64,000 bases of DNA from Burkholderiales bacterium (GTDB taxonomy: Bacteria > Pseudomonadota > Gammaproteobacteria > Burkholderiales > Eutrophovitaceae): positions 7,939 through 71,938 of the forward strand of contig DATKYN010000141.1 of NCBI GenBank assembly GCA_035528435.1, read 5' to 3'. The position numbers and the translations under genes are program-made. The notes below the pieces were generated by a model, which worked only from the letters and a program-made list of their open reading frames with translations, was not told the DNA's origin and did not search any database. Shown piece after piece: positions 27,931 to 55,687 of the stretch. Numbering within the stretch: position 1 is the stretch's first letter; the number at the start of each line of letters is the position of its first letter.

Positions 27931-27933
27931 CCA

Positions 27934-28707: not shown

Positions 28708-28718
28708 GGACACAGCTG

Positions 28719-29570: not shown

Positions 29571-29600
29571 CGGCCGGGCCCCCGGATGTGGTCAGACGCG

Positions 29601-29629
29601 TTGACAGTATTGCGATAAGCCAATAACAT
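29601..29629 (+). promoter_or_regulatory. Putative sigma70 promoter of the atp operon
   Basis: TTGACA (29601-29606), a 17-nt spacer, then TAACAT (29624-29629), between parB and atpI. Confidence 0.35.
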
Positions 29630-29667
29630 CTCGGCCTTTTTGTGGTTATGCTGCAGCCGCACAAGGA

Positions 29668-30859
<1,192 letters not shown>

Positions 30860-36243: not shown

Positions 36244-36663
36244 ATGGCAAATACGATACAGGTAGAAGTAGTAAGCGCCGAAGAGTCGGTTTACTCGGGT
36301 GAAGCGTCTTTTGTCGTCCTCCCCGGCGAATCCGGCGAACTCGGAATCTATCCCCGCCATACGCCTCTGATCACGCGTATCAAACCCGGTGCCATTCGCA
36401 TCCAGCCCAGCGGCGGCGGTGAAGAGCAGCTGATCTTTGTTGCCGGAGGTATCCTCGAAGTCCAGCCTGCGATGGTGACCGTGCTTGCAGACACCGCGAT
36501 TCGAGGACACGACCTGGACGAGGCAAAGGCGCTGGAAGCCAAACAGCGAGCCGAAGAAGCACTCCGCAGTGCCACCGACAAGCAGGAAATCGCTGTCGTG
36601 GAGGGCGAACTAGCAATGTTGGCAGCTCAACTCGCCGCGATTCGCAAGCTACGCAGACACTAG
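36244..36663 (+). CDS. atpC: F0F1 ATP synthase subunit epsilon
   Basis: 139 aa with [15 protein letters not shown]..., in the last position of the operon. Confidence 0.93.
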
Positions 36664-36715
36664 CGCGCATTCCTCAACGCTACATCGGCGCGGCACCTCA
36701 CAGGCGCCGGTTCTG

Positions 36716-36747
36716 AAAAAGAGCAGCAATCACGCTGCTCTTTTTTT
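36716..36747 (+). terminator. Rho-independent terminator of the atp operon
   Basis: AAAAA-GAGCAGC-aatcac-GCTGCTC-TTTTTTT. A second GC hairpin (CGGCGC...GCGCCG) lies just upstream at about 36687-36710. Confidence 0.8.
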
Positions 36748-36856
36748 GTTTCTGTGTATCCGTCACAATTGGAAAGCTGTGATATTGCCGGACGTCGGCA
36801 CCGGGTACTCTGCTTTGATGACTTACCCGGAAGCAAATGCGTTTACTGAGGCCATT

Positions 36857-38014
36857 ATGAAACTGAATCGGGCAACACTGATTACCACTTTGCTTGTCTT
36901 TCTCCTAGCCGGCTGTTCATCGGAGAAAGACACCGTCAAGATCGCCTTTATTGGTCCGCTCACCGGAGGCGTATCCGCAAATGGCCTCGGCGGAAGAAAT
37001 TCCGCAGAGCTCGCCGTCAGACTGCACAACGCCGAATCGTCCGGTAATTACACGTACGAACTGGTTGCGCTTGATGACGAGTGCAAGCCGAATATTGGCG
37101 TGCAGGTAGCGACAAAAGTAGCCGCTGACAAGGACGTCATTGCCGGAGTCACTCATTACTGCTCTGCCGTTGCCATGGGAACGGTCGATGTCTATCACAA
37201 GTTCGGTTTGCCGGTCGTCGTATGGGGTGCAGTACTGCCCGACATCACCTACGGCAACGACTACAAGGAAGTGCACCGCGTCAATGGCACGATGATCAAC
37301 CAGAATGAGGTCGCCGCAGATTTCATGCTGGAACAGGGTTACAAGAAATGGGTCATCATTCATGACACCACTGACTATGGAAAAGGTCACAACCGGTACT
37401 TCTCGAAATCTCTTGTTGCCAAGGGTGGGAGAATTCTCGGCACGTTCGGCGTCAGTTCGGACCAGCAGGACTTTAACGCCGAACTCACCAAGGTCAAGGA
37501 ACTCAATCCTGATGTCATATATTTCGGGGGGCTGGCGCCAACCGGTGTGCGATTGCGTTCGCAGATGGAAAAGCTCGGTATCGATGCCGTTTTTCAGGGT
37601 ACATCCGGAATAGTCTCGGATGCCTTCATTGAAGGCCTGGGCCCTTTGTCGGAGGGCGTGATTGCGTTTCGTGAGGGCGCACCGGTGGAGAATCTGCCCG
37701 GTGGTGAAGGTTTTCTGGTGCGGTACGACCAGCAGGGATTCGGCGAACCACCCGAAGCCTATGGCGCTTTTGCGTTCGCTGCAACCCAGCTCATCATCGA
37801 TGCAATCGAGAAAGTCGGTCCCGACCGCGCCGCAGTGAAGCAGGAACTGAATACAACGCGCGACCACGATTCCATTGTTGGACTCATTACGTTCGATGAC
37901 AACGGCCAGAACACGGTTGCCCTGATTACCCGCTATGTCATTCAGGACGGAGACTGGGTCGTCTGGGAACAGAGCGAATACGCTCAAGGCGAGCGCTCGC
38001 TGCAAAAACGCTAA
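36857..38014 (+). CDS. Liv-type (type I periplasmic binding fold) ABC substrate-binding lipoprotein
   Basis: A lipobox signal (LLVFLLAGCSS) is followed by IAFIGPLTGGVSANG, typical of LivJ/K-like Peripla_BP_6 proteins. I chose the start at 36857. Confidence 0.85.
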   Translation: MKLNRATLITTLLVFLLAGCSSEKDTVKIAFIGPLTGGVSANGLGGRNSAELAVRLHNAESSGNYTYELVALDDECKPNIGVQVATKVAADKDVIAGVTHYCSAVAMGTVDVYHKFGLPVVVWGAVLPDITYGNDYKEVHRVNGTMINQNEVAADFMLEQGYKKWVIIHDTTDYGKGHNRYFSKSLVAKGGRILGTFGVSSDQQDFNAELTKVKELNPDVIYFGGLAPTGVRLRSQMEKLGIDAVFQGTSGIVSDAFIEGLGPLSEGVIAFREGAPVENLPGGEGFLVRYDQQGFGEPPEAYGAFAFAATQLIIDAIEKVGPDRAAVKQELNTTRDHDSIVGLITFDDNGQNTVALITRYVIQDGDWVVWEQSEYAQGERSLQKR

Positions 38015-38033
38015 CGACTACCGGCACAAGGTC

Positions 38034-38951
38034 ATGGATCCGGGATTCATCGCGCAATACTTGCTTAACGGCATCGTGCTGGGCGTGATCTACGCCATGG
38101 TTGCAGTCGGATTTACATTGTTCTTTGGTGTGCTCGACGTCATCAAGTTTTCTCATGGTGACGTGGTAATGGCGGGAGCATTCACTGCTCTGGCAACCTA
38201 TGCCGGACTTGAGTATCTCGGTGTCGGTGATGGCGCGATTGCTGCCATTGTAATCACGGTAATGGGAATCGCCGCCATGGCCGTGCTCGGTGCGGTGCTG
38301 GCGAAGCTTCTGATTTTGCCCCTGCGCGAGGCTCCACCACTCAACACCTTGCTGATTACCCTGATGTTCGGGCTCGCCTTGCGCGAGTCGGTGCGACTGT
38401 TCTATCCGAACGGCTCAAACCCGAAACCGTTTCCGCAACTGTTGCCGGACGCAGCAATGACCATCGGTAACCTCGAACTACGTCTCGACAGCGTACTGTT
38501 GATTGTCCTGGGTCTGGGTGCGATCGTCGCGGTGCACCTGATGATTCAGCGCAGTCGTATCGGCCTGGCCATACGCGCTGTCGCGCAGGATCCCGAAACG
38601 GCTCGCCTCATGGGAATCAACTTCGAGCGCGTCGTGTTGATGACGTTTGCCCTCGGCTCCGCGCTGGCCGCGCTGGCGGGGATTACCAATGGCTTGTATT
38701 ACAGCGAAGTGAATTTTGGAATGGGTCTGCTGCTCGGCGTGATCGGTTTCAGTGCTGCCGTTGTGGGTGGCCTGGGAAGTCTCTATGGCGCGATTATCGG
38801 TGGATTTCTATTCGCTGCGTTGCAGACAATAGGTGCAGTCTGGTTTTCCGTGCCTGCCTACAAGGATGTGTTTGCATTTGCATGCATCATCGTCCTGATG
38901 GCCTGGAAGCCCACCGGACTTCTTGCAGACAAGTCAGCGGAACGCGTCTGA
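38034..38951 (+). CDS. Branched-chain-amino-acid-type ABC permease (LivH family)
   Basis: The N-terminus is QYLLNGIVLGVIYAMVAVGFTLFFGV. The protein is multi-TM, and its position follows the binding protein. Confidence 0.85.
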   Translation: MDPGFIAQYLLNGIVLGVIYAMVAVGFTLFFGVLDVIKFSHGDVVMAGAFTALATYAGLEYLGVGDGAIAAIVITVMGIAAMAVLGAVLAKLLILPLREAPPLNTLLITLMFGLALRESVRLFYPNGSNPKPFPQLLPDAAMTIGNLELRLDSVLLIVLGLGAIVAVHLMIQRSRIGLAIRAVAQDPETARLMGINFERVVLMTFALGSALAALAGITNGLYYSEVNFGMGLLLGVIGFSAAVVGGLGSLYGAIIGGFLFAALQTIGAVWFSVPAYKDVFAFACIIVLMAWKPTGLLADKSAERV

Positions 38952-38955
38952 GCCG

Positions 38956-40113
38956 ATGAAATTCAAACGCAAAAGCTTCTGGCCGGTTATTGTTACCGCG
39001 TTATCCGCAGCCTTGTTCGTTCTGCTCTTTTTGTACCTTGAGCACGAATGGGAAATTGCGCTGCTTGCAGTTGGCCTGGTTGCCGTGCTTTTCTTCTCGG
39101 CGCGATTCGGGTTACTGGCGCGCGTCGAAACCGCCGCCTCCGACCATCCGCGTACGACGATCCTGGTCAATGTTGTTTCGGCGTTGCTGGTGATTGTTTT
39201 TCTGCGTGAGGAACATTTTGCTTTGCTCATGCTCGCGACGGTGTTTCTGTATGTCACCATCTGTCTTGGTCTGACCCTGCAATTCGGCTATGCCGGCATT
39301 GTCAATTTCGCCGGCATAGCATTCTTCGGCATCGGCTCCTACACAGCGGCAGTCCTGGCCGTGCACAGTCCGCTACCGCATTTGCTGGTTATCCTCGTTT
39401 CCGGGCTTGTCGCCGGACTCATTGGATCGTTGCTGATTCTCCCCATGCTCAGAACGCGAGGCCATTACGCCGCGCTGGTCACTATTGCGTTCGGCATCCT
39501 GTTTCGAACGTTTCTGGAAGTGAATGATTTGCTGGGTGGTCCACAGGGGCTGAAAGTCCCTGGCATGCAATTGTTCGGCTGGTCGCTAAACGACAATATT
39601 TCGCTCGGTCCACTTGGCATGATTTCCTTTTACGCTTCGTACGCGGTTATCTCTTTGCTGTTGGCGGCCGGTGCTTACACGCTGATCAAACGCCTTGAAC
39701 GTTCCTGGCTTGGCTTGAATCTCGATGCTGTACGAACCGACGAAACTGCGGCTGCGTCCTTTGGAATTGACCTGCCTCGCTGGAAAATATTCGCCTTCAC
39801 AGCTGGAAATTGTCTCGCGGGTGTGGCGGGCGGTGTCTACGCGATGATGTCGGGTTTCATCGCGCCTGCCAGTTTCAACTTCGGTGATTCCCTGCTGCTT
39901 GTGTCCATTGTCCTGCTCGGAGGCAGTGGTAATCCGCTGGGAGTATTGCCGGCAGCGCTACTGGTGGTCGTGTTGCCCGAGAAGCTGCAGATCATCCAGG
40001 AGTACCGGTTGTTGTTGTTTGCGGTACTCGTGATTCTGATTCTGCGTTTTCGGCCCGAGGGGCTGCTGCCTCGAAGAATACGGGAGTATTACGCCGGCTG
40101 GGGACGCTCTTGA
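38956..40113 (+). CDS. Branched-chain-amino-acid-type ABC permease (LivM family)
   Basis: A multi-TM protein with the LivM-like core (LTLQFGYAGIVNFAGIAFFGIGSY). I chose the start at 38956, just after the LivH stop. Confidence 0.85.
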   Translation: MKFKRKSFWPVIVTALSAALFVLLFLYLEHEWEIALLAVGLVAVLFFSARFGLLARVETAASDHPRTTILVNVVSALLVIVFLREEHFALLMLATVFLYVTICLGLTLQFGYAGIVNFAGIAFFGIGSYTAAVLAVHSPLPHLLVILVSGLVAGLIGSLLILPMLRTRGHYAALVTIAFGILFRTFLEVNDLLGGPQGLKVPGMQLFGWSLNDNISLGPLGMISFYASYAVISLLLAAGAYTLIKRLERSWLGLNLDAVRTDETAAASFGIDLPRWKIFAFTAGNCLAGVAGGVYAMMSGFIAPASFNFGDSLLLVSIVLLGGSGNPLGVLPAALLVVVLPEKLQIIQEYRLLLFAVLVILILRFRPEGLLPRRIREYYAGWGRS

Positions 40114-40886
40114 CCAGTCCGGTACTCACGGTTGATGGCCTCACTGTGCGCTTTGGCGGACTCACTGCGCTTGACCGATTACAGTTTGAACTCAGTGCAG
40201 GAGATTTTGTCGGGCTGATCGGGCCCAATGGCTCCGGCAAGACCACTTTCTTCAATGCGCTAACCGGCATTTACACCCCCGCGTCAGGCAATGTAGTGCT
40301 TTCGGGAGAAGACATCACCGGTTTGCCGCCGCAGAAAATCTATGACGTGGGCATTACACGAACATTTCAGCGCCTGCGGCTTGCACCAACGTTGTCGGTA
40401 TTCGATAACCTGATGATCGGTAATCATCGAAATCTTGATCACGGCATTGTCGCCAACCTGTTCAGACGCAAGCGCCTGAAGCTTGAAATCGAAGACAATG
40501 TCGAGAAAAGCCGCTTGTTGCTGGAACAGTTCAGCGCCCCTCTGGCCTCGCGCCTGTTCGATCCGGTGTCGCAGTTGACGATGATTGACCGGCGCCGTGT
40601 CGAAGTCTGCCGTGCCTTGATCAGCGAGCCCGGGATACTTTTGCTTGATGAACCGTCTGCTGGCATGACACACGAAGAAACACGCGAGCTGATGGACGAC
40701 CTGCTGGCATCGCGCGAGCGCATGCCCGGACTCGCCATCGTGCTGATCGAGCATGAGATGGGTGTCATTGAGCGCGTTACAGACCGTTGCGTTGTGCTCA
40801 ATTACGGCGAGAAAATCGCCGAGGGCAGCTATCAGGAAGTGGCTCGTGACAGTGATGTTCGCGCTGCCTACCTCGGAGACGATTGA
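40110..40886 (+). CDS. ABC ATP-binding protein (LivG family)
   Basis: Walker A GPNGSGKTT, then LLLDEPSAGM and the C-terminal AYLG. The start overlaps the permease stop. Confidence 0.9.
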   Translation: MTSPVLTVDGLTVRFGGLTALDRLQFELSAGDFVGLIGPNGSGKTTFFNALTGIYTPASGNVVLSGEDITGLPPQKIYDVGITRTFQRLRLAPTLSVFDNLMIGNHRNLDHGIVANLFRRKRLKLEIEDNVEKSRLLLEQFSAPLASRLFDPVSQLTMIDRRRVEVCRALISEPGILLLDEPSAGMTHEETRELMDDLLASRERMPGLAIVLIEHEMGVIERVTDRCVVLNYGEKIAEGSYQEVARDSDVRAAYLGDD

Positions 40887-40889
40887 GCG

Positions 40890-41603
40890 GTGAGCAACGA
40901 ATTGATGATTCAAAACGTTGTCAGCGGCTACGACGAGGCTGATGTTCTCAGCGGGGTCTCTCTCGAGGTGCCTGAAAAGCAGATAACCTGTTTGCTTGGG
41001 TCTAACGGCGCCGGAAAGACGACACTGATTCGCGCTATTCTGGGCCTGACACCCGCGCGCAGCGGCCGCATCTGTTTCGGGCAAACGGATATAACCCATG
41101 AACCGACCCATCGAATTGTCGGCCTCGGGGTGACCTGTATTCCCGAAGGACGACGGGTGTTCCCGCGCATGAGCGTGACGGAGAATCTCAGGGTCGGTGC
41201 CTATACGGGTACCGACCGGCAAGCAATCGAAAGACGGTTCGATGAAGTGTTCGCTATTTTCCCGCGGTTGCGCGAGCGTGCCGATCAGCTTGCCGGAACC
41301 ATGTCAGGCGGCGAGCAGGCGATGTTGTCAATTGGCAGAGGATTGATGAGCGGGCCCAAACTGTTGATTGTCGATGAGCCATCGCTGGGCTTGTCGCCAT
41401 TGTTCGTCAAGGAAAATTTCAAGGTGATCCAGCGTATTAACGAACTCGGTGTTACGGTTTTGCTGGTCGAACAGAATGTGCGGCAAACGCTGGCGATTGC
41501 GCATCGAGGCTATGTATTGTCCCAGGGCCGCATTGTGGCGCAGGGCGATGCTGCGCAGTTGCGAGACAACGAGGAAGTCCGGGCCGCATACTTCGGCAGC
41601 TGA
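40890..41603 (+). CDS. ABC ATP-binding protein (LivF family)
   Basis: Walker A GSNGAGKTT, the signature MSGGEQAML, then LIVDEPSLGL and the C-terminal AYFG. The start codon is GTG. Confidence 0.9.
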   Translation: MSNELMIQNVVSGYDEADVLSGVSLEVPEKQITCLLGSNGAGKTTLIRAILGLTPARSGRICFGQTDITHEPTHRIVGLGVTCIPEGRRVFPRMSVTENLRVGAYTGTDRQAIERRFDEVFAIFPRLRERADQLAGTMSGGEQAMLSIGRGLMSGPKLLIVDEPSLGLSPLFVKENFKVIQRINELGVTVLLVEQNVRQTLAIAHRGYVLSQGRIVAQGDAAQLRDNEEVRAAYFGS

Positions 41604-41670
41604 GATTCATGTTTTACACGTGAGAAATTTTCAGATCACGTACGCATTGGAATGCAAAGGGGAGAATGAA

Positions 41671-42801
41671 ATGGCCAAGCCAGTCAATGCAGTGGAGTTG
41701 ACCAAACAGATCGTGCGGATGAACACGATTAACCCGCCAGGAGACGAAGAGGCATGTGCCCGTGTTCTGGGATCGTTGCTGGAGTCTGCCGGCTGCACAG
41801 TCGCGTACCACAAGCTTGGTGACAAGCGCGCGAGCCTGGTTGCCCGTATCGGAGGCAGCAGTGACAAGGCGCCTCTGTGTCTGACCGGGCATATCGACAC
41901 GGTACCGTTAGGCGCAGCCCCCTGGAGCAAGGATCCCTTTGCTGGCGAAACCGCTGATGGCCGGTTGTATGGTCGCGGTACCAGTGACATGAAGTGTGGC
42001 GTAGCGGCTTTCGTAGCGGCAACAGTCTCACTCGCGGCGAAGCTCGAGCGTTCACCCGGTCTCGAGCTGGTCATTACAGCCGGCGAGGAAGTCGGTTGCG
42101 AGGGCGCGTTCGATCTGGTTCGTCGTCAAGGTGCGCTCGGCCGCGCAGGAGCAGTGCTGGTAGGTGAGCCGACCTCGAATTTCCCGTACGTTGGACACAA
42201 GGGCGCGTTCTGGCTGTGCGCAAAAACGCATGGCGTCACCGCCCACGGCTCGATGCCGGAACGCGGCGACAATGCTGTATACAAGGCGGCCCGCGCCATC
42301 ACGGCGCTGGAGAATTTCCGGTTCGACAATCCCCCGCACGAGATGATGGGTCAGGCAACGCTTAATGTTGGTACCGTGCGTGGCGGGCTCAATATCAACT
42401 CGGTTCCGGATGAAGCCGCAATTGAAATCGATATTCGCAGCGTGCCAACATCGCGCCACGATGCCATCCGGAAAGCACTGCAGGAACGATTGGGCAGCGA
42501 GGTTGATCTCGAACCGATTATCGATCTCGAAAGCGTCTACAGTGAACCCGATCACGTTTGGATTCAGAAGCTGTTCGACATTACCCAAACCTATCTGGGC
42601 GCCCGCCCGGAACCAAAGGTGGCGACGTATTTCACTGACGCTGCGGCACTGACACCCGCATACGGCAATCCGCCGACGGTGATCCTCGGTCCCGGAGAAC
42701 CGCAAATGGCGCACCAGACCGACGAATACTGCGTTATCGAACGCGTCGCATCTTCGGTCAGTCTGTATGAACAGGTCATCGCCGACTGGTGTGGCGTCTG
42801 A
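41671..42801 (+). CDS. M20-family metallo-amidohydrolase (ArgE/DapE/ACY1 type)
   Basis: Metal and catalytic motifs are present: LTGHIDTVP, GRGTSDMKCGVAA, AGEEVGCEGA and VTAHGSMPERGDNA. An AAGGGGAG Shine-Dalgarno sequence precedes the ATG at 41671. The longer ORF from 41449 overlaps livF and is unlikely. Confidence 0.8.
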   Translation: MAKPVNAVELTKQIVRMNTINPPGDEEACARVLGSLLESAGCTVAYHKLGDKRASLVARIGGSSDKAPLCLTGHIDTVPLGAAPWSKDPFAGETADGRLYGRGTSDMKCGVAAFVAATVSLAAKLERSPGLELVITAGEEVGCEGAFDLVRRQGALGRAGAVLVGEPTSNFPYVGHKGAFWLCAKTHGVTAHGSMPERGDNAVYKAARAITALENFRFDNPPHEMMGQATLNVGTVRGGLNINSVPDEAAIEIDIRSVPTSRHDAIRKALQERLGSEVDLEPIIDLESVYSEPDHVWIQKLFDITQTYLGARPEPKVATYFTDAAALTPAYGNPPTVILGPGEPQMAHQTDEYCVIERVASSVSLYEQVIADWCGV

Positions 42802-43999
42802 CGCGTCGTGTGAGTCGTATTCTGCGGTGAAGACAGAAGCCGGATATCAAGCGTTGTTTGATCCGGGCGCGCGACTGGTCGAAACGGCGGGCGCGCTAAC
42901 GCTGGTCGAAGGTAAGTGTGATGGGCAGGTGTTGCGCGCCGCATTGACAGATCGAGCAGTTGCGGGAGGATCGTTTGGCGTCGAAGAGAGCGAGGCGCTT
43001 ACGAAGCATCTGCTTCGCAGCCACGACGATGGTACGCCCTTTGTTCTGATACTTGATTCGGCCGGCGCGCGGCTGGACGCCGGACTGGCGGGGTTGGGCG
43101 CTTTCCGCCGTCTCTATCGCGCTGCTCTTGATGTTCGCCTTGCCGGTGTTCCGATGGCCGCGCTGCTGGAACGCGACTGTTTCGGCGGGGCCAGTATGCT
43201 GGCAATGCTATGCCCGGTACGAGGCGCAATCCAAAGCGCACGAATCGGCATGTCCGGACCCGGCATCGTTGCAGCACTTTCAGGCGGGCAGGACCTTGAT
43301 GCATACGACCGTGATGCGGTTCGGGCGCTCTTTGGCGCACCGTCGCGAGCGCGGGCCGGTGCGATAGACTTCCTCTTCGATTCGAACACGCCACGACACG
43401 AAGCGCTGGCCCAGTTGCTTGGGCTTGCCATGAGCAAAAAAGCCGGGCTTGGTGCTCAGCACCAGATACTCGAAAAACGGTTGCGTGAAGCGGGCATCGA
43501 AACCGGTACGCCGGTGCTGGATAACGTGGCCGAATTGTTCCGTCGTGGAATTCCGGTCGGTGCTGCCGAACTCTGGCAACTCTCCGATGCAGTTCTTTCA
43601 TGCCAGCCCGGCGAGATCCTCGAGCTGGAAATTGACTGTCCCGGTCAGGCCGCATCGTCGCGCGACGAGTCATTGGTACTGTCCGAATATGTAGCGCACC
43701 TGGCTCTTTGTCTGCGTGAGCGTTATCACTGCGGTGTCGAAATTGTCATGCGTATCGAAGGAGAATCGGCCGGAGGGATCTATGTAGCGTTGGCGGCCGG
43801 TGCACAACGGGTCGAGGCAACGCCGATGGCGAATGTGCGGGTGTTGCCGGCTCGGGCAATAGAAGTCGTTTTGGGAAAGTTCCTGCCCGACGAATCACTC
43901 GCCGATGCCCTTGTGGCAGGCATTGTCGATTTTATCGTGCCGATTCGCGGATGCAGCGCTGCCGTGCCGGCAGTTCGACTCGGGAGCAGCAATGAATAA
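42767..43999 (+). CDS. Fused MdcD-like/MdcE-like carboxyltransferase (biotin-independent malonate decarboxylase beta+gamma-type domains in one compact polypeptide)
   Basis: The N-terminal half (GGSFGVEESEALTKHLL..FVLILDSAGARLDAGLAGLGAF..CFGGASMLAMLC..ARIGMSGPGIV) follows the MdcD/acyl-CoA carboxyltransferase pattern. The C-terminal half (IDCPGQAASSRDESLVLSEYVAHLA...GESAGGIYVALAAGAQRV) follows the MdcE pattern. The start is uncertain (ATG 42767, GTG 42791 or GTG 42827). The assignment comes from recalled motifs only. Confidence 0.6.
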   Translation: MNRSSPTGVASDASCESYSAVKTEAGYQALFDPGARLVETAGALTLVEGKCDGQVLRAALTDRAVAGGSFGVEESEALTKHLLRSHDDGTPFVLILDSAGARLDAGLAGLGAFRRLYRAALDVRLAGVPMAALLERDCFGGASMLAMLCPVRGAIQSARIGMSGPGIVAALSGGQDLDAYDRDAVRALFGAPSRARAGAIDFLFDSNTPRHEALAQLLGLAMSKKAGLGAQHQILEKRLREAGIETGTPVLDNVAELFRRGIPVGAAELWQLSDAVLSCQPGEILELEIDCPGQAASSRDESLVLSEYVAHLALCLRERYHCGVEIVMRIEGESAGGIYVALAAGAQRVEATPMANVRVLPARAIEVVLGKFLPDESLADALVAGIVDFIVPIRGCSAAVPAVRLGSSNE

Positions 44000-45494
44000 C
44001 AGCAATATGTATCTTGAAATCTCCGGCGTGGTTGAAGCCTATCGGGACCGAATCGCGTTGAGAGCCGGTAACGGCAACGAGTTAAGTTACGGCGAACTGG
44101 ATGCCGAGGTCGCCCGATATGCCAATGCCTTATGCGAGACTGGTCTGCGACGCGGAGACCGGGTAGCCGTTCAGCTTCGCAAGAGCATTCCTTCACTGTT
44201 CGTCTATCTCGCGTGCCTGCGCGCCGGGCTGGTTTATCTTCCCCTGAATACCGCTTACCGTAGTGCCGAACTGGACTATTTTCTGCGCGATGCCGAACCC
44301 GGTTTGATACTGGTCGAAGCAAAGCAACGCACGGCAATGGAAGATCTGGCCAAAGCAACGATTGGTGCAACGGTGATGACTGAGGAAGAGGTGACCGGGC
44401 TTGCGCAGCGAGCGGCGGGCTCGCACGAACAATTTCCCACCGCGACGTCGGGGCCCGATGACCTTGCGGTGATTATTTACACGTCCGGCACGACAGGACG
44501 CAGCAAGGGCGCAATGGTTACTCATGACAACCTCGTTTCCAATGCGCGTGCACTGACGCAGCAATGGAAGTTCACCGGTGACGACGTACTACTGCATGCT
44601 CTGCCAATTTTTCATGTTCATGGCCTGTTCGTCGCCAATCATTGCGCGCTGACAACTGGCGCGTGCTTGCTGTGGCATGACCGGTTCGACGCAAGCGATG
44701 TTGCGCGTGATATCAAGCGTTCCACCGTGCTTATGGGAGTTCCGACGTACTACGTGCGTTTACTCGGGGAGCCGGATTTTTCGCGAGAGGCCTGCTGCAG
44801 CATGCGGTTGTTCGTATCCGGATCGGCCCCCTTGCTGGCGGAAACGCATTATCAGTTCGAACAGCGTACTGGACATCGAATCCTTGAACGCTATGGTATG
44901 TCCGAAGCCGGCATGATCACGTCCAATCCGTATCACGGAGAGCGCCGCGCGGGGACCGTTGGTTTTCCGCTGCCGGGCGTCGATGTCCGAGTAGCCGACG
45001 AAGCGAACAAGCCCGTACCAAACGGTGAAAAGGGCGCAATACAGATCAAGGGCCGCAATGTCTTCAGTGGTTACTGGCGTATGCCTGAGAAAACGCGGGA
45101 AGAATTTACGCCCGATGGCTGGTTTCGCACCGGCGACATAGGCTTGTTCGATGCTGACGGTTATCTGTCGATTGTTGGCCGGGAGAAAGATCTCATCATT
45201 ACTGGCGGCTATAACGTCTATCCGAAAGAGATCGAACAGGTTATCGATGAATTACCCGGGGTAATTGAATCTGCGGTGATCGGCGTGCCGGACGCTGACT
45301 TCGGCGAGGCGGTGACGGCAGTCGTCGTTGCGACGGCGGGTGCGCAGATCGATCAGGCAACAACCATTAGTGCCCTGAAAACAAAGCTTGCAGGATATAA
45401 GGTGCCGAAGCACGTTCATATCGTCGAAGCGTTGCCGCGCAACGCGATGGGTAAGGTACAGAAAAAGCTGCTGCGCGAACGTTTCGGTCAGTAA
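43992..45494 (+). CDS. matB: Malonyl-CoA synthetase-like AMP-forming ligase (MatB family)
   Basis: Long colinear matches to rhizobial MatB as I recall it: GDRVAVQ..LACLRAGLVYLPLNTAY..AELDYF..DAEP, IIYTSGTTGRSKGAMVTH, LPIFHVHGLFVA, LMGVPTYYVRLL, SGSAPLLAETH, ILERYGM, AGTVGFPLPGV, GYWRMPEKT, GGYNVYPKEIE and NAMGKVQKKLLRE. The ATG at 43992 overlaps the upstream stop by 8 nt. Confidence 0.8.
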   Translation: MNNSNMYLEISGVVEAYRDRIALRAGNGNELSYGELDAEVARYANALCETGLRRGDRVAVQLRKSIPSLFVYLACLRAGLVYLPLNTAYRSAELDYFLRDAEPGLILVEAKQRTAMEDLAKATIGATVMTEEEVTGLAQRAAGSHEQFPTATSGPDDLAVIIYTSGTTGRSKGAMVTHDNLVSNARALTQQWKFTGDDVLLHALPIFHVHGLFVANHCALTTGACLLWHDRFDASDVARDIKRSTVLMGVPTYYVRLLGEPDFSREACCSMRLFVSGSAPLLAETHYQFEQRTGHRILERYGMSEAGMITSNPYHGERRAGTVGFPLPGVDVRVADEANKPVPNGEKGAIQIKGRNVFSGYWRMPEKTREEFTPDGWFRTGDIGLFDADGYLSIVGREKDLIITGGYNVYPKEIEQVIDELPGVIESAVIGVPDADFGEAVTAVVVATAGAQIDQATTISALKTKLAGYKVPKHVHIVEALPRNAMGKVQKKLLRERFGQ

Positions 45495-45519
45495 TTTCTA
45501 CTGTTGGCAAAGCAGAACG

Positions 45520-46320
45520 TCAACCGGAAAAAACGGACCACAGCATTCTCGCCGCGAGCGCAAACAAAATGAGCGCGAAGATCTGTTTCAGGCGCTCGAC
45601 CGGCATACTGTGCGCGAGCTGTGCGCCTACCGGAACCGTAATAAAGGTGCCAATCACAATAGAGATCAGGGCTGGCAGATAGATATAGCCCAGACTCATT
45701 GCTGGCAGGTTCGGTTCCGAAAAGCCGGTGTAGGCGTAACCGGCGGCGCCGGCGAGAGCAATTGGAAAACCGAGTGCCGCCGAGGTGCCAACTGCGTTGC
45801 GCATGGGCACATTGCACATCACCATCAACGGAATGGAAACGACACCGCCGCCAGCGCCCACCAGGCCCGAAATCACGCCGACGATCCCGGAGCCGGCGGA
45901 CATTCCTGCCGGACCCGGCAGTCGTCTGCTGGCAGCAGGTTTCCTGCCCACTATCATTTGTGTTGCCGAGTAGGACACGAATACGACGAACACGATTGCC
46001 AATAAGCGTGAGTCAAGCCAGTCGGCGATGAATGCCCCGAGTAAGGTGCCGACTACGAGGCCGGCTGCCGCCCCGCGAAAAATATCCCAGCGCACTGCGC
46101 CGCGCATGTAATGCGCTCGAATGCTCGACAACGACGTGAAAACAATCGTCGTCAATGAAGTACCGAGGGCAAGATGCAGGATTCGATCGGCAGGGAACTC
46201 CTGGGCAGAGAACATGAATACCAGCAGGGGTACCAATAACATTCCGCCGCCTATACCAAGCATGCCGGCGAACAAGCCGACGATCAGGCCCAGCAAGAGA
46301 TAAACGATCCACCAGTCCAA
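45520..46320 (-). CDS. TauE/SafE family membrane transporter (sulfite/anion exporter-like)
   Basis: 266 aa with about 7-8 TM segments and duplicated G-rich motifs (MLGIGGGMLLVPLL, LVGAGGGVVSIPLM) typical of the TauE/SafE (DUF81) family. Confidence 0.85.
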   Translation of the reverse strand: MDWWIVYLLLGLIVGLFAGMLGIGGGMLLVPLLVFMFSAQEFPADRILHLALGTSLTTIVFTSLSSIRAHYMRGAVRWDIFRGAAAGLVVGTLLGAFIADWLDSRLLAIVFVVFVSYSATQMIVGRKPAASRRLPGPAGMSAGSGIVGVISGLVGAGGGVVSIPLMVMCNVPMRNAVGTSAALGFPIALAGAAGYAYTGFSEPNLPAMSLGYIYLPALISIVIGTFITVPVGAQLAHSMPVERLKQIFALILFALAARMLWSVFSG

Positions 46321-46329
46321 GCTTTGCCT

Positions 46330-46791
46330 CTAGCTCTCGATGAGTGCCATGATGAACTGCCACTCTTCTTGTGTGACCGGCGTAATGGACAAGCGATTGC
46401 CGCGCTTCAGAATTTGCATGGTCGCAAGCTCAGGGTGCGAGCGCAGTTCCTGGATGCTGACCAGGCGTGTTTTCCGCACCAGCGTGACATTCACATTCAG
46501 CCAGCGCGGGTTTTCCCGTGTTGCCTTTGAGTCGAAGTACTCGCTGTTCTTGTCGAACTGCGTTTCGTCGGGATAGGCGTTGCGGGAAATCTTCATGAGT
46601 CCGGCGATGCCAGGCTGAGGGCAACTCGAGTGGTACAAGAAAACCAGGTCCCCACGCTTCATGTCGTCCCGCATGAAATTACGCGCCTGGTAATTACGTA
46701 CGCCGTTCCATGGTTCCGTTTTTTTCGGCCGTTTGGCCAGATCATCGACACCGAAGACGCTGGGTTCGGATTTCATCAGCCAGTAATGCAT
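46330..46791 (-). CDS. EVE (PUA-like) domain protein
   Basis: MHYWLMKSEPSVF...W.GVRNYQARNFMRDDMKRGDLVFLYHS matches the stand-alone EVE/THYN1-like domain. I chose the start at 46791. Confidence 0.85.
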   Translation of the reverse strand: MHYWLMKSEPSVFGVDDLAKRPKKTEPWNGVRNYQARNFMRDDMKRGDLVFLYHSSCPQPGIAGLMKISRNAYPDETQFDKNSEYFDSKATRENPRWLNVNVTLVRKTRLVSIQELRSHPELATMQILKRGNRLSITPVTQEEWQFIMALIES

Positions 46792-46869: not shown

Positions 46870-47105
46870 TGTGTCGCTCCAACTGATCTTGCCGGCTGGA
46901 TGAATAGGGTGCCCCCCGCGAATGCCGTCAGACCGATATCCTGAACCGTATGGTTCAAGAGCGGCCACCTTCCGAACGTCTTAGGTACGTCCATGTCGGA
47001 CGCGCACAACAACGTTACTTAAGTCGGCGACCTGACGTAATCACATTGGTTCAGAGAAACAACAGCCTGGACGCACACTGCAGGGGACATGGAATCACAG
47101 GACAA
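46870..47105 (-). ncRNA. ssrS: 6S RNA (ssrS); ends approximate by about 30 nt
   Basis: It lies immediately downstream of zapA, as in E. coli. The minus strand contains 6S-like blocks GUCCCCUGC (47087-47080), pairing with GCGGGGGGC (46919-46911), and CUUGAACCAUACGGUUCAGG (compare E. coli CCUUGAACCAAGGGUUCAAGG). No covariance model was run. Confidence 0.6.
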
Positions 47106-47113
47106 CTGTCAAT

Positions 47114-47422
47114 TCAGAACAGTTCATCCTGAGCGGACAGAATCTCATCGATCTTCGTCTGCATTTCAGCCATTCTACGCCGCACTTCGCCGAGGTCAAC
47201 GCCATCGACGCGCACTGACAATAGCTCGTGTGCCATATTGAGAGCGGCCATGATGGCGATTCGTTCGACACCAATCACTTTGCCGCTGTCACGGATCTCG
47301 CGCATCTTGGCATCGAGGTAGCCGACGGCTTTTTGCAGCTCCGGCTGCTCTTCTTCGGTGCACGCGACCCGGAATTGTCGACCGAGTATGGAGACGTCCA
47401 TTCCGGGTGCTTCCTTGCTCAT
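47114..47422 (-). CDS. zapA: Cell division protein ZapA
   Basis: 102 aa with VSILGRQFRVACTEEEQPELQKAVGYLDAKMREIR...ERIAIMAALNMAHEL, the typical ZapA pattern. Confidence 0.9.
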   Translation of the reverse strand: MSKEAPGMDVSILGRQFRVACTEEEQPELQKAVGYLDAKMREIRDSGKVIGVERIAIMAALNMAHELLSVRVDGVDLGEVRRRMAEMQTKIDEILSAQDELF

Positions 47423-47619: not shown

Positions 47620-47747
47620 GGCATCACTATATTTAAAAGTTCTGAAAAGTCAACTGCTAACGGTATATATTGAATGTTGTTTAGCATCTTTGGTGCCAGC
47701 CGCCCATGATTAATCGGCAGTCTGTTTTGTAATGACCGTGTACACTG

Positions 47748-48010
47748 ATCGGGTTCCAAGGTGCCCTGGATTATTTGTTTGTCAGGGTTAAACGGGAAAT
47801 CAGGTGAAATTGGGCTGGATTGGCGGTTTTTTCGCCGCAGATCCGGACGAATCAGTCCTGTGCTGCCCCCGCAACGGTAAGCGAGTGTGGGCGCGTCATT
47901 CTCGGATCTCTTCAATGGATCCGAAGCCACTGTGACAAGTAAGCGTGTTAGCGCTTACTTATTATGGGAAGGCGACGTGTCAAGACTCGCGAGCCCGGAT
48001 ACCGGCCGTG
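47748..48010 (+). promoter_or_regulatory. Cobalamin (B12) riboswitch
   Basis: Conserved blocks are present: GGUGCC..., GGUUAAACGGGAAAUCAGGUGAAAU, CUGUGCUGCCCCCGCAACGGUAA, the B12 box GAAGCCACUG, then GGGAAGGC and AGCCCGGAUACCGGCC. It lies upstream of a TonB-dependent receptor. Confidence 0.78.
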
Positions 48011-48138
48011 TGAACAGCGACGGAGTTTCCGCGAGGGGCGGTAAACCGGCTGGTTCAATGATGTTTGGCCGCCTACTGCAGAAATCTCCTTGTTTTTTTG
48101 TCACGTACACGGCGGGTGTGCGCATCCGGGAGAGCATC

Positions 48139-50244
48139 ATGGCCACCACACTTCGCCTGGCAAGCATCATCGGCACACTGATGTGTCTTTCGCAATCAGT
48201 CGCTGTTGCAAATGATGTGCACGCCGAATCTGTGCCTACCAATGTCCGCACGGACGACATCGTCGTAACGGCAACCCGGTTTGCCGAAACGGGACTTGAC
48301 CGACCAGTCAACTTAACCGTGATCAGCAGGGAGGCAATCGAAGCCAGCCCGGCGAAAACGGTGCCGGAAGTTCTTGCGGGCCAGGTTGGCATAGTCAACA
48401 CAGAACTGTTCGGTAATAACGGCGCCAATACCACTGTTGATTTGCGTGGCTTCGGCGCGACCGGTGGTCGAAACACCCTTATTCTCGTCGACGGTCGCCG
48501 TATCAATGATATTGACCTGTCCGGCGTGAAGTGGTCTTCCATTCCGCTGTCTTCGGTCGAGCGTATCGAAATTGTTCGTGGCAGTGGTTCGGTTCAGTAT
48601 GGTGACGGCGCGGTCGCGGGCGTGGTCAATATCATCACGCGGTCACCGTCGGGTGGGAGCAGCAGCGCGACTGTGGGTGCACGTTACGGCTCGCTCGATA
48701 CGCGGCAGGGGAAAGTCAACGCGACACTGCTCGAGGATGCCTACGGTCTGAACATCAATGCTTACAAATATTCTTCCGATGGCTATCGCGAGAATAATCA
48801 GAATGAAGATTCGGCGTTGCAGCTGGATGCCAGACGCACTGGAATCTCCAACGACCTTTCGTTCAAGCTCGGCAGCGACCGGCAGACCATCCGCTTGCCG
48901 GGAGGGCGTCGCGTGCAACCGAGCGCAGATATCAATCAGCTCGAAGACGATCGACGTGGCACTTCGACCCCGCTCGATTACGCGACGCGGGACGGCGCGT
49001 ACGCAACATTCGGGCTGTCAAGTCGACAGGATTTCGGTCTGATAGATGTCGAGTTAGGCTACCGTGAGAAAGAGCAGTCCTCCTATTTCGATTTTGGCGG
49101 CTTTCCGGACTACCGCGAGACGGACCTCGATGTCTGGAGTTTTACACCGCGTATCAAGATTCCGTACGTCTTCGGCAAAACCGATAACGAACTCGTGGTC
49201 GGTATCGACATCTACGATTGGGACTATCGCCTCGACACCTCGAACGATCCCATGAATATCGTTACGCCGATCAATCAGATACGCGCGACCCAACTGGACT
49301 ATGGTTACTATTTGTATGACACGGTCCGGGTCGGCGAAGCCTTGCAACTGTCGTTAGGCTGGCGCGAGCAGTGGCAGGAGATTGAAGCCCGGGACAGTTT
49401 CGACCCGACCGCACCAGGCGCTGGTTTCGGCTCGGGGGCGGCGGACGGTGACCAGGACCTGCGTGAATACGCCTACGAACTGGGGCTACGTTACGATCTG
49501 GATGCGACTTGGGCGATGCTCGCATCCACCGGCCGCAGCTTTCGGTTCGCAACGGTCGATGAAATCTACGAGTTCGCGGGTCCGCCGCTGTTCCAGCGTG
49601 AGTTCCAGTTTCTACTCCCACAGACCGCAGACAGTATCGACATCGGCGTCGAACGTCGATGGAACGCAAATGTGCTACGGGCGACAGTCTTCCAGATCGA
49701 TGTTGAAGACGAAATTCACCTCGATGTGTATAGCACCGGCATCGGAAACACCAACCTTCCGCCATCGCGGCGGCGCGGTATTGAACTCGAGCTGGCGTCC
49801 TCGCTTGGCGATGTCGATCTCGGTGTGACCTACGCTTATACGGAAGCAAAGTACCTTGAGGGCAGTTTTCCCAGCGCGGGAGGCAGCGTTGATATTGCCG
49901 GGAAGACGGTGCCTCTGGTGCCACGCGACAAGCTTACATTCAATGCGCATTGGGCGATTACCGGGGATGCCTACATGACCCTCGCGTATCGCTACGTCAG
50001 CGATCAATTTATGGACAATGACGAGCCAAACGATTTTGGCACGAAAATTCCCGCCTATTCCGTCTTCGATTGGAAGTATTCGCATCGATTCAATGCCTGG
50101 CAAGCTGGGCTGGTGGTAAACAATTTGCTCGACGAGAAGTACTACACCTATGCTGTGCGTAGCACGGCTACCGATGCTTACAATGCTTACCCGCTACCGG
50201 AACGAACCGTTACCGTTTTTGCCGAGTATCAATTCGGACAATAG
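48139..50244 (+). CDS. TonB-dependent outer-membrane receptor (BtuB-like, riboswitch-controlled)
   Basis: A signal peptide (ASIIGTLMCLSQSVAVA) is followed by the TonB box DDIVVTATR, plug motifs (IEIVRGSGSVQYG) and a C-terminal aromatic residue (EYQFGQ end). The first 84 codons of the longest ORF are a translation of the riboswitch. Confidence 0.9.
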   Translation: MATTLRLASIIGTLMCLSQSVAVANDVHAESVPTNVRTDDIVVTATRFAETGLDRPVNLTVISREAIEASPAKTVPEVLAGQVGIVNTELFGNNGANTTVDLRGFGATGGRNTLILVDGRRINDIDLSGVKWSSIPLSSVERIEIVRGSGSVQYGDGAVAGVVNIITRSPSGGSSSATVGARYGSLDTRQGKVNATLLEDAYGLNINAYKYSSDGYRENNQNEDSALQLDARRTGISNDLSFKLGSDRQTIRLPGGRRVQPSADINQLEDDRRGTSTPLDYATRDGAYATFGLSSRQDFGLIDVELGYREKEQSSYFDFGGFPDYRETDLDVWSFTPRIKIPYVFGKTDNELVVGIDIYDWDYRLDTSNDPMNIVTPINQIRATQLDYGYYLYDTVRVGEALQLSLGWREQWQEIEARDSFDPTAPGAGFGSGAADGDQDLREYAYELGLRYDLDATWAMLASTGRSFRFATVDEIYEFAGPPLFQREFQFLLPQTADSIDIGVERRWNANVLRATVFQIDVEDEIHLDVYSTGIGNTNLPPSRRRGIELELASSLGDVDLGVTYAYTEAKYLEGSFPSAGGSVDIAGKTVPLVPRDKLTFNAHWAITGDAYMTLAYRYVSDQFMDNDEPNDFGTKIPAYSVFDWKYSHRFNAWQAGLVVNNLLDEKYYTYAVRSTATDAYNAYPLPERTVTVFAEYQFGQ

Positions 50245-52134: not shown

Positions 52135-52439
52135 ACCCGGGCCCACGGGTATTGCCTGTCGCTGATTCGAAGGTTCGGGCTCTGGCGCGATAATGGGGCG
52201 CGTCATACACGCCGGCCAATCACTCGCCTGCCCTACCGGCTGCGTTTTTGCCAGGCCGGACGCGTCTGAGAGCAATTCTTCGACTGGCATCTGTCAGCTC
52301 TTTCGCGCCGGGTTTGTTTCACTTATCTTGATCCGGCTCAGTGCATGAACACCCGCAAGGGTATTTAATACCCGGCAGGCCTTGTAACCTTATCGATAAA
52401 GTACCGATAGCAATCAAGTTGATCGCAAGAGGAGAGTGC

Positions 52440-53738
52440 GTGGTGAAGAAAACCCGGAAGAATATTTTCGAACTGTACGAACAGGATCCGCATCAGGCAG
52501 ACCGAGTGGTGTTCGGACGCGAAACGTATCGTGATCGGCGCGGATTCCTTAAGGGCGCCGGACTTGCGGGAATGGCGGCGCTCCTTGGTGGCGCCATTCC
52601 GTTTCATCGCAATATGCCAGGTGGGCTGATACCGGTAGCACTGGCGGAACAGGCGTTTCAAATTGAAAACAAGGACGGACTAATCATTCTCAATGATCGT
52701 CCGGTAAACGCCGAGTGTCCGCCCCATCTGCTCGACGATGAAGTAACGCCCAACGTACGCCATTTTGTCCGTAACAATGGTGTACCGCCCACCAGTGTCG
52801 ATGCTGCAAGCTGGAAGCTGCGCATAGACGGTGAAGTAGCCTCTGCCATGACGCTTGGCATTGATGACCTGAAAGAAAGATTTGAAGTCGTGAAGCTGCG
52901 ACTGCAGATCGAATGCGGTGGCAACGGGCGTGCCTATTTCGACCCGAAGGCCAAGGGCAATCAGTGGACGCTTGGTGCCGTCGGGTGTTCCGAGTGGACC
53001 GGCGTGCGGCTTGCCGATGTTTTGAAGGCCGCTGGTCTGAACAGCAACGCGGTCTATACCGCGCACTACGGCGCCGACACCCACCTCTCCGGTAATCCCG
53101 ACAAGGAGCCGATCTCGCGAGGCGTGCCGATCAAAAAGGCGCTCAGTCCGTACAATCTGATCGCGTTCGAGCAAAATGGGGGGCCGTTGCATCCGATGAA
53201 TGGCGCACCGTTACGGCTGGTGGTTCCGGGATGGCCGGGATCGTGTTCGCAAAAATGGCTCACCCGGATTCAGATTCGTGACAAGGTGCACGACGGTGCG
53301 AAGATGACCGGCACCTCCTACCGGGTGCCCGCCTATCCGGTTGCGCCCGGGGAAAAAGTGCCGAAGAAGGATTTCCGCATCATCGAATCGATGCCGGTCA
53401 AATCCCTCATTACCTGGCCTGAGAGTGGCATTGAATTGTCAGACGGACGTGAGCTCGTGGTTCGCGGCCATGCCTGGGCCGGGGACAATGCCGTAAGGTC
53501 GGTCGAATTATCGATCGATTTCGGCGCAACCTGGATTCGGGCTGACCTGCGCACCCCGGTAAACCCGTTTGCCTGGCAGCGTTTCAGCGCCCGGGTACGC
53601 TTCCCGGATAAAGGTTATTACGAAGTGTGGGCGCGCGCTACGGATGATACCGGCGCGCAGCAACCGTTCGCGATCGCCTGGAATCCGAAAGGTTACCTTA
53701 ACAACTCGATGCACCGCATCGCGGTCAGGGTTGCGTGA
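52440..53738 (+). CDS. sorA: Sulfite dehydrogenase/sulfite-oxidase-family molybdopterin subunit (SorA-like), Tat-exported
   Basis: The Tat motif is DRRGFLKGAGLAGMAALLGG. SUOX-family motifs include VRHFVRNNG, ECGGNGR and the dimerisation domain. The GTG start lies after a GGAGAG Shine-Dalgarno sequence. Confidence 0.78.
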   Translation: MVKKTRKNIFELYEQDPHQADRVVFGRETYRDRRGFLKGAGLAGMAALLGGAIPFHRNMPGGLIPVALAEQAFQIENKDGLIILNDRPVNAECPPHLLDDEVTPNVRHFVRNNGVPPTSVDAASWKLRIDGEVASAMTLGIDDLKERFEVVKLRLQIECGGNGRAYFDPKAKGNQWTLGAVGCSEWTGVRLADVLKAAGLNSNAVYTAHYGADTHLSGNPDKEPISRGVPIKKALSPYNLIAFEQNGGPLHPMNGAPLRLVVPGWPGSCSQKWLTRIQIRDKVHDGAKMTGTSYRVPAYPVAPGEKVPKKDFRIIESMPVKSLITWPESGIELSDGRELVVRGHAWAGDNAVRSVELSIDFGATWIRADLRTPVNPFAWQRFSARVRFPDKGYYEVWARATDDTGAQQPFAIAWNPKGYLNNSMHRIAVRVA

Positions 53739-55639: not shown

Positions 55640-55687
55640 CTGTCGAACGACAGGTGTCGAGTTAAATCGCAGTAAAGTCCAACCTGA

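Follow-up and report, generated by a model that had tools for sequence, protein, structure and literature searches.

What compound could be taken up and degraded by the products of an operon that joins a branched-chain amino acid (Liv)-type ABC importer and an M20 family amidohydrolase with a malonyl-coenzyme A (CoA) synthetase and a protein resembling two subunits of malonate decarboxylase? This question is raised by a stretch of 64,000 nucleotides (nt) from a Burkholderiales bacterium (GenBank assembly GCA_035528435.1, contig DATKYN010000141.1, positions 7,939 to 71,938; hereinafter the window, to which the coordinates below refer). The operon comprises two modules, each of which is found alone elsewhere. 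Module 1 consists of the substrate-binding protein (SBP), the other importer components, LivHMGF, and the M20 hydrolase, and module 2 of a single-chain fusion of MdcD-like and MdcE-like domains (hereinafter the fused protein) and the ligase MatB. The best-founded new element is module 2, a putative decarboxylase with MatB that includes a one-polypeptide form in a cultured Herbaspirillum, which makes the hypothesis on its function directly testable.

Organization of the operon

The operon occupies positions 36857-45494 of the plus strand, directly downstream of the atpC terminator, with a non-coding leader of ∼110 nt between this terminator and the SBP gene. The initial annotation of the locus, made from its letters and open reading frames (ORFs), counted nine genes; the coordinates in the window give eight, all of them found at the place indicated, in the same direction after the atp terminator. 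The junctions agree with the spacing described there, namely, overlaps or gaps of at most 20 nt throughout, with the sole exception of a 67-nt spacer in front of the M20 gene (Table 1). In the importer part, the gaps are 16 nt between the SBP and LivH genes, 4 nt between LivH and LivM, and 3 nt between LivG and LivF, whereas LivM and LivG overlap by 4 nt. Further downstream, the M20 gene overlaps the gene of the fused protein by 35 nt and the latter overlaps the MatB gene by 8 nt (ATGAATAA), which suggests translational coupling at both junctions. The eight genes are presumably co-transcribed. The sole convincing site in a promoter and terminator scan is the atpC terminator, the counts otherwise being at the level of chance (6 versus 4.8 expected; 13 versus 12.6 expected); the promoter-like and terminator-like sites in the 67-nt spacer are likewise not above chance. 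No Rfam match at E ≤ 1 was detected over positions 36500-46500, which cover the leader and the interior of the operon.

The domain assignments initially made for these genes (Liv importer, ArgE/DapE-type M20, carboxyltransferase fold and MatB) are borne out by Pfam and NCBIfam. A Pfam scan of the ∼50 ORFs of the window detected no MCD/MatA, MdcA/B/C/G/H, MatC, MdcF or MadLM, in accord with the original statement that the canonical matA/matC and mdcA/C/G/H genes are absent from the window.

The fused MdcD/MdcE-like protein and MatB as a separate module

The family of the fused protein is real and has gone under other names or none. A word-indexed search yields ∼300 matches, all unnamed or misnamed, and an exhaustive profile search recovers 143 representatives (clusters at 50% identity) with E ≤ 1e-30; the current names of the members are acetyl-CoA carboxylase beta subunit, malonate decarboxylase gamma, enoyl-CoA hydratase and hypothetical protein. 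The plasmid collection contains no homologue. Two of the profile-search representatives, 899 and 939 amino acids long, are one-chain proteins in which the C-terminal 500 residues are 51-52% identical to the full-length MatB of the window. Such one-chain fusions of MdcDE-like domains with MatB (875-955 amino acids), annotated only as 'AMP-binding protein' or malonyl-CoA synthetase, form at least 15 clusters at 90% identity in two divergent groups, with one cluster seen on up to 18 contigs, and come from an isolate genome (Herbaspirillum sp. NPDC087042), from metagenome-assembled genomes (MAGs) of Collimonas and Ramlibacter, and from metagenomes.

The Herbaspirillum locus consists of a GntR/FCD regulator, the fusion and a TRAP transporter (DctPQM), which is the classical mat layout with MatA replaced. 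Another fusion is accompanied by a divergent GntR regulator and an MFS transporter, and in two loci an alpha/beta hydrolase gene, with or without an SDR gene, lies directly upstream of the fusion. Unfused pairs of the fused-protein family and MatB also occur without M20; their neighbors are MFS, GST, SDR or acyl-CoA dehydrogenase genes, and the MatB orthologues in these pairs are 48-52% identical to that of the window. The fusion of the two proteins in one chain is strong evidence that they act on consecutive steps, and module 2 is likely to provide a MatA-independent route from malonate via malonyl-CoA to acetyl-CoA. In the literature searched, we found no description of MatB together with M20, or of a fused MdcD/E together with MatB.

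We propose that the fused protein is a biotin-independent malonyl-CoA decarboxylase. It passes the Pfam thresholds of MdcE (50.3 versus 32.7) and Carboxyl_trans (33.1 versus 22.3) and stays below those of the curated equivalogs, both for the beta subunit (70 versus 228 and 64 versus 278 bits) and for the gamma subunit (50 versus 237 bits). The start codon is uncertain, either ATG at 42767 or GTG at 42791. A confident AlphaFold2 model (pLDDT 84.7, pTM 0.86) predicts a two-domain carboxyltransferase, for which the top Foldseek matches are acyl-CoA carboxylase beta and 12S carboxyltransferase subunits. The global TM-scores of these matches are low (∼0.4). The solved carboxyltransferases form the active site across a dimer, so that the domain arrangement differs; we take the Foldseek result to support the predicted fold rather than a quaternary similarity. 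The positions equivalent to Val121 and Gly162 of the MdcD oxyanion hole (G100-A101 and G140-G141) are invariant in the family, and so is Q294, which corresponds to Gln100 of MdcE. The MdcD-MdcE pairs of Pseudomonas aeruginosa and Acinetobacter calcoaceticus decarboxylate malonyl-CoA in vitro (PMC5534430), and therefore provide a biochemical precedent for the proposed activity. This precedent, the pairing with MatB in unrelated contexts and the one-chain fusions lend support to the initial suggestion that a carboxyltransferase-fold protein would decarboxylate the malonyl-CoA made by MatB.

Alternatively, the fused protein could be a carboxyl- or acyltransferase, or a non-catalytic partner of MatB. 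The similarity to MdcD and MdcE is indeed remote, as is apparent from the equivalog scores, and of the three MdcE residues proposed to contact the malonyl group, two are different (Tyr102 is replaced by Ala296 and Ser142 by Gly336, in an alignment with an E-value of 0.002); furthermore, distant members of the family occur in other settings, such as GST/NIPSNAP neighborhoods and a KS-containing cluster. The invariant oxyanion-hole motifs, the repeated pairing or fusion with MatB in the stead of MatA, and the lack of a biotin carrier or acyl carrier protein nearby in any of the loci nevertheless make these alternatives very unlikely.

The MatB of the window is 55.5% identical to Rhodopseudomonas palustris MatB (4fuq/4fut) over 479 residues (E-value 2e-169) and contains the catalytic Lys in the GKVQK motif, the counterpart of which is mutated in 4fut. 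A preference for malonate is predicted. It appears improbable that the ligase and the decarboxylase act chiefly on methylmalonate or ethylmalonate, with propionyl-CoA or butyryl-CoA as the products, even if the nearest relative with a solved structure, the R. palustris enzyme, is described as a methylmalonyl-CoA synthetase and the N-terminal domain of the fused protein fits the methylmalonyl-CoA carboxyltransferase 12S model (93.6 bits) as well as MdcD (87.3 bits). The window MatB comfortably passes the NCBIfam malonyl-CoA synthase model, the layout of the Herbaspirillum locus mirrors that of malonate loci, and genes for propionyl-CoA handling are adjacent in none of the loci seen.

Two proteins of 533-557 amino acids (P0317 and P0330) combine, in one chain, the canonical MdcD motifs (GGVRL.EAN and GCFGG) with an MdcE-like half, so that a beta-gamma fusion also exists in a lineage closer to the true malonate decarboxylases.

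The importer and the M20 hydrolase

The importer is a complete LIV-I/HAAT set, with an SBP, two BPD_transp_2 permeases and two ATPases that carry the BCA C-terminal motif. The motif LLAGCSS in the SBP suggests a lipoprotein-like signal. The nearest solved relatives of this protein are LivK and LivJ of Escherichia coli, to which the identity is low. The LivJ contacts Ser79 and Tyr150 are retained, whereas the amino acid clamp is replaced (Glu226 by Ser250, Tyr202 by Leu226 and Thr102 by Val126), and these positions are invariant across 41 orthologues. A free branched-chain amino acid is therefore an unlikely ligand, and a ligand with a blocked amino group appears plausible.

The M20 protein passes only the broad TIGR01910 model of the ArgE/DapE subfamily (238 bits versus a cutoff of 217.6) and falls below every DapE and ArgE equivalog cutoff (TIGR01246, proteobacterial DapE, 123 versus 362; NF009557, 157 versus 284). 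The metal-binding and catalytic residues are present (H74, D106, E139/E140, E166 and H348), as is the trans-subunit His (H192, equivalent to His194 of Haemophilus influenzae DapE, HiDapE). In HiDapE, the alpha-carboxylate of the substrate is clamped by Arg258, Thr325 and Asn245 (PMC5919655), to which R256, T322 and N243 of the M20 protein correspond. All these catalytic, trans-subunit and clamp residues are invariant among the orthologues. The position of HiDapE Ser181, which contacts the distal carboxylate of diaminopimelate (DAP), is occupied by Ala179. The retained clamp and the replacement of Ser181 indicate an N-acyl-alpha-amino-acid amidohydrolase other than DapE, and the protein probably is a dinuclear-zinc N-acyl-alpha-amino-acid deacylase. 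The contacts to the alpha-carboxylate and to the distal DAP carboxylate could be retrieved from the DapE literature, but not those to the succinyl carboxylate.

It is most unlikely that this gene is a housekeeping dapE or argE that ended up in the operon by chance. DapE and ArgE enzymes rank first among the solved relatives, the source annotation reads succinyl-diaminopimelate desuccinylase, and the protein is strongly conserved (65-94% identity), all of which would be compatible with such a role; the failure at the equivalog cutoffs, the loss of Ser181 and the location of the orthologues behind a Liv importer in many lineages argue against it. That the M20 protein might turn out to be a bona fide ArgE or DapE had been recognized from the start as a threat to the proposed pathway, and the missed cutoffs speak for a different enzyme.

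The operon in its own clade

A genome search with the fused protein yielded 43 species-level loci, all from MAGs of uncultured Burkholderiales or Betaproteobacteria, with 'Betaproteobacteria bacterium SG8_40' among the nearest relatives. Wherever the contig allows an assessment, the M20 gene is located directly upstream of the fused gene (38 of 38 loci) and the MatB gene directly downstream (37 of 37), so the arrangement is not due to chance; 23 of 29 loci also contain the Liv genes. All these loci come from one clade, however, and therefore do not count as independent events. None of them is flanked by MdcA/B/C/G/H, and no MatA was seen in the related loci with Pfam labels; accordingly, matA or mdc genes adjacent to the operon in relatives, a finding that would have spoken against a novel system, were not encountered in the loci examined.

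The upstream part of the operon varies within the clade. In six loci, the Liv slot holds a divergent Dpp/Opp-type ABC importer (family-5 SBP, two permeases and two ATPases), and in two others (L036 and L041) there is no transporter between the atp genes and M20. In one sublineage with an M20 at 74% identity, the gene order is atp-Liv-M20-MatB-2-oxoglutarate (2OG) oxygenase and the fused gene is absent. Only in a single clade of uncultured Burkholderiales, in which synteny is generally rigid, are the two modules joined. Elsewhere, a low-GC marine lineage again shows the complete atp-Liv-M20-fused-MatB architecture.

In many relatives, MatB is followed by a variable set of genes on the same strand that are absent from the window. 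This set includes a 2OG-Fe(II) oxygenase of ∼200 amino acids (21 loci), a YpfJ-type neutral zinc metallopeptidase, an M48 peptidase and two YbjQ-like proteins.

One pathway or two modules?

The most economical link between the modules is that the acid released by the M20 hydrolase is malonate, in which case the imported compound would be an N-malonyl or N-methylmalonyl amino acid. Module 1 would import this N-blocked alpha-amino acid, and the zinc hydrolase would split the amide and thereby set free an amino acid and a carboxylic acid; with ATP and CoA, MatB would convert malonate to malonyl-CoA (or, possibly, methylmalonyl-CoA), from which the fused protein would produce acetyl-CoA and CO2, using neither biotin nor an acyl carrier protein. 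In the Burkholderiales clade, module 2 would have lost the dicarboxylate transporter and the GntR regulator that it has elsewhere, and would have become translationally coupled behind the importer and the deacylase. This linked pathway for N-malonyl conjugates is our leading hypothesis, although we hold it tentatively. It is doubtful that the locus is, more specifically, a dedicated operon for the catabolism of N-malonyl amino acids in widespread uncultured Burkholderiales, with re-tuned Liv or Dpp import, a new amidohydrolase and a new class of decarboxylase; if it is, plant- or alga-derived N-malonyl-D-amino acids and malonyl-1-aminocyclopropane-1-carboxylate (malonyl-ACC) would be the candidate substrates.

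Several features speak for a link between the modules. The operon lacks a dicarboxylate transporter and a regulator, unlike the stand-alone copies of module 2, which carry MFS or TRAP transporters. The M20 gene adjoins the MatB gene even in the sublineage without the fused gene, and stays beside it where the Liv genes are swapped for the Dpp-type importer or lost. The tight overlap of the M20 gene and the fused gene spans the boundary between the modules. The removal of a dicarboxylic acyl group by an enzyme of this type has a precedent in DapE. Finally, the alpha/beta hydrolase encoded directly upstream of the one-chain fusion in two loci puts a hydrolase of another type in the same place.

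It is possible, all the same, that the modules are functionally independent and merely co-located. Liv and M20 might then scavenge a ubiquitous N-blocked amino acid (N-acetyl, N-formyl or N-succinyl) or a small peptide-like compound, the products entering general metabolism, and MatB with the fused decarboxylase might detoxify or assimilate free malonate that is either endogenous or acquired via a transporter encoded elsewhere. Several observations favor this possibility and weigh against the linked pathway. In a search that started from M20 and yielded 80 metagenome loci, the fused gene or MatB comes next in 7 of 7 informative loci with homologues of at least 64% identity, but among homologues below 64% identity, 35 of 38 have no MatB or MdcDE nearby (3 of 38 do). 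Many of these more distant homologues lie directly behind a Liv system that is orthologous (SBP identity 64-69%), and nothing is conserved downstream of such MatB-less Liv-M20 units, which recur in many metagenome contigs as a self-contained block of six genes. MatB-linked (n = 34) and MatB-less (n = 7) cases do not differ at the pocket positions inferred for the SBP and M20; therefore, the substrate of module 1 would predate the association, and Liv-M20 appears to be an older self-contained module with a substrate that does not depend on MatB.

The pocket residues themselves lean towards a neutral acyl group. The substitutions in the SBP (Glu to Ser, Tyr to Leu and Thr to Val) introduce small or hydrophobic side chains, and a new cationic residue is not evident. 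The M20 protein has the motif GHKG as in E. coli ArgE, which acts on acetyl substrates, unlike the GRRG of HiDapE, and a neutral acyl group (for instance, acetyl) would fit this motif at least as well as malonyl. Moreover, a literature search turned up no paper describing a bacterial N-malonyl-amino-acid hydrolase.

The conserved adjacency, too, loses much of its force on closer inspection. The entire region from atp to TauE-EVE-ZapA-6S RNA-TonB receptor is syntenic across the clade, so the unrelated flanks are as syntenic as the module junction, and this junction probably arose once; hence, adjacency weighs little. Because the genes downstream of MatB vary among relatives, this site seems to accumulate unrelated genes. 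The ground for proposing an N-malonyl substrate is, in the end, nothing other than adjacency in a clade with conserved flanking synteny. The initial annotation had presented the importer, the deacylase, the ligase and the decarboxylase as one plausible pathway. A single, inseparable unit of these four is not supported: Liv-M20 is widely found without MatB, the MdcDE-like protein with MatB is found without M20, one sublineage lacks the decarboxylase, and some relatives have a Dpp-type importer or none.

More distant M20 homologues, at 47-49% identity, were found in the plasmid collection, in unrelated contexts that do not indicate the substrate. Plasmid 2 of Variovorax sp. RA8 (L130, 323410-332001) encodes, in succession, an IclR regulator, an amidohydrolase, hydantoinases A and B, an M20 protein (49% identity) and a TTT SBP; there, this M20 subfamily appears to act as the terminal deacylase of a ring-opening pathway. 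On a Pantoea plasmid, the context is ABC, PTE-like, GATase and M20. An apparent analogue of the M20-ligase arrangement (L106/L107) was rejected: the ligase is 33% identical to MatB, and an oppositely oriented dehydrogenase gene intervenes.

Other features of the window

The window includes the replication-origin region (16133-30000), with gyrB, dnaN and dnaA on one side, and yidC, mnmE, mnmG, rsmG, parA and parB, followed by the atp operon, on the other. The minimum of the cumulative GC skew is at ∼20 kb, and the gene orientation flips between dnaA and yidC. The operon follows atp directly on the leading strand, at a distance of ∼16-24 kb from the origin, a position that suggests a high gene dosage and, possibly, expression by read-through.

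The TauE, EVE and ZapA genes on the downstream side are common to the related loci. Beside zapA, a 6S/SsrS RNA was detected (47.3 bits, gathering threshold 46.4). Beyond these, a cobalamin riboswitch is followed by genes for a TonB-dependent receptor and an ABC_membrane/ABC_tran protein, which together are likely to constitute a B12 uptake unit. A gene for a sulfite-oxidase-type molybdopterin oxidoreductase (Oxidored_molyb and Mo-co_dimer), a homologue of which (family f29) recurs downstream in related loci, precedes an ORF of 237 amino acids without a Pfam match, possibly the redox partner of the oxidoreductase. The TRAP system of the window, ∼9 kb from the operon, was considered as a MatPQM-like malonate transporter and rejected, its SBP and the TRAP SBP of Herbaspirillum sharing only 29% identity, and that over a fragment.

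Table 1. Features of the operon and its surroundings in the window, and locations of related features in other loci
Feature	Location	Strand	Remarks
gyrB	16133-18532	-	
dnaN	18556-19662	-	
dnaA	19876-21201	-	
yidC	22120-23781	+	
Intrinsic terminator of the atp operon (atpC)	36715-36746	+	13-bp stem and T-run; upstream boundary
SBP of HAAT/Liv-type ABC importer	36857-38014	+	Peripla_BP_6, PF13458, 156 bits
LivH-type permease	38031-38951	+	PF02653; below the cutoffs of LivH and UrtB alike
LivM-type permease	38956-40113	+	PF02653; LivM subfamily, 172 bits
LivG-type ATPase	40110-40886	+	ABC_tran and BCA_ABC_TP_C
LivF-type ATPase	40890-41603	+	ABC_tran and BCA_ABC_TP_C
Spacer of 67 nt	41604-41670	+	GGGGAG ribosome-binding site for M20; only sizeable intergenic gap
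M20 amidohydrolase, ArgE/DapE subfamily	41671-42801	+	Peptidase_M20 and M20_dimer; TIGR01910
Single-chain fusion of MdcD-like (beta) and MdcE-like (gamma) domains	42767-43999	+	410 amino acids; Carboxyl_trans N-terminus, MdcE C-terminus
MatB, malonyl/methylmalonyl-CoA synthetase	43992-45494	+	NF005702, ANL superfamily; 763.4 bits versus cutoff 558
TauE/SafE-family membrane protein	45520-46320	-	Convergent; downstream boundary, outside the system
6S/SsrS RNA	46909-47089	-	
zapA	47114-47422	-	
Cobalamin riboswitch	47742-48024	+	78.6 bits, gathering threshold 31.5
TonB-dependent receptor ORF	47887-50244		True start probably later
Molybdopterin oxidoreductase and 237-amino-acid ORF	52341-54448	+	
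TRAP DctP/DctQ/DctM, DUF2817 protein, Tle1-like catalytic-domain protein	54506-60013	+	TRAP system at 54506-57551; Tle1-like: type VI secretion system phospholipase-type
One-chain MdcDE-like/MatB fusions	P0273, P0285, P0385-P0392, P0407-P0413; loci L132, L133, L143, L144		
Dpp/Opp-type importer in relatives	L012, L023, L028, L038, L021, L011 (e.g. L038 3091-8480)	-	Slot between atp and M20
Genes between MatB and TauE in relatives	L012 12905-15145, L041 8928-10431, L044 12719-13321		Examples

Implications and comparison with known systems

If the link between the modules is real, the operon would be the first route identified in bacteria for N-malonyl amino acids, which make up a large pool of plant conjugates; if it is not, the locus is a clear example of how adjacency within a single clade can mislead pathway inference. 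Assignment of a function to module 2 would, in addition, correct the annotations of this family and the predictions of malonate utilization in Burkholderiales, and the natural fusion of ligase and decarboxylase could serve as a compact engineering part to control malonyl-CoA levels.

In module 1, the importer matches LIV-I (LivJ/K-HMGF) in its five components and their families, and differs in the SBP, in which Glu226, Tyr202 and Thr102 of LivJ, the clamp for the free alpha-ammonium and alpha-carboxylate, are replaced. The hydrolase resembles DapE and ArgE in its fold, in the dinuclear-zinc ligands and the general base, and in having both the trans-subunit His and a clamp for the alpha-carboxylate, and DapE is a precedent for the removal of a dicarboxylic acyl group. 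In contrast to these enzymes, it scores below the equivalog cutoffs, lacks the conserved contact to the distal DAP carboxylate and, judging by the context behind an importer, would have a catabolic or salvage role rather than a biosynthetic one.

For module 2, the relevant systems are those of malonate utilization. In the MatABC and MatPQM-MatAB systems of rhizobia, the MatB synthetase works with the malonyl-CoA decarboxylase MatA under a GntR-type regulator, MatR. The same two steps, from malonate to malonyl-CoA and on to acetyl-CoA and CO2, are proposed here, the MatB proteins are orthologous, and the Herbaspirillum relative of module 2 has the matching set of GntR regulator, TRAP transporter, ligase and putative decarboxylase. 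However, MatA (MCD family) was not found, an unrelated carboxyltransferase-fold protein being in its place, and the operon in the window has neither a malonate transporter nor a regulator, the Liv importer and M20 preceding module 2 instead; given the absence of MatA and of a malonate transporter, this is not a Mat system.

With the MdcACDE(+BGH) decarboxylases of Pseudomonas, Klebsiella and Acinetobacter, the fused protein shares the MdcD-like and MdcE-like domains, the oxyanion-hole positions and Gln100. It is, however, one chain of 410 amino acids as opposed to two subunits totaling ∼570, scores far below the family cutoffs, and is encoded in a window without MdcA, the acyl carrier protein MdcC or the genes for the prosthetic group; instead of malonyl-acyl carrier protein, it would act on a CoA thioester supplied by an ATP-dependent ligase. 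Judging by these similarities, the fused decarboxylase appears to derive from the beta/gamma core of Mdc without being a member of the Mdc holoenzyme. To our knowledge, bacteria use malonate in two ways, through MatB with MatA or through the multisubunit Mdc/Mad decarboxylases. If the function proposed here is correct, the MdcD/E-like protein with MatB would be a third solution, in which the Mdc core, relieved of the acyl carrier protein, acts on the CoA ester supplied by MatB.

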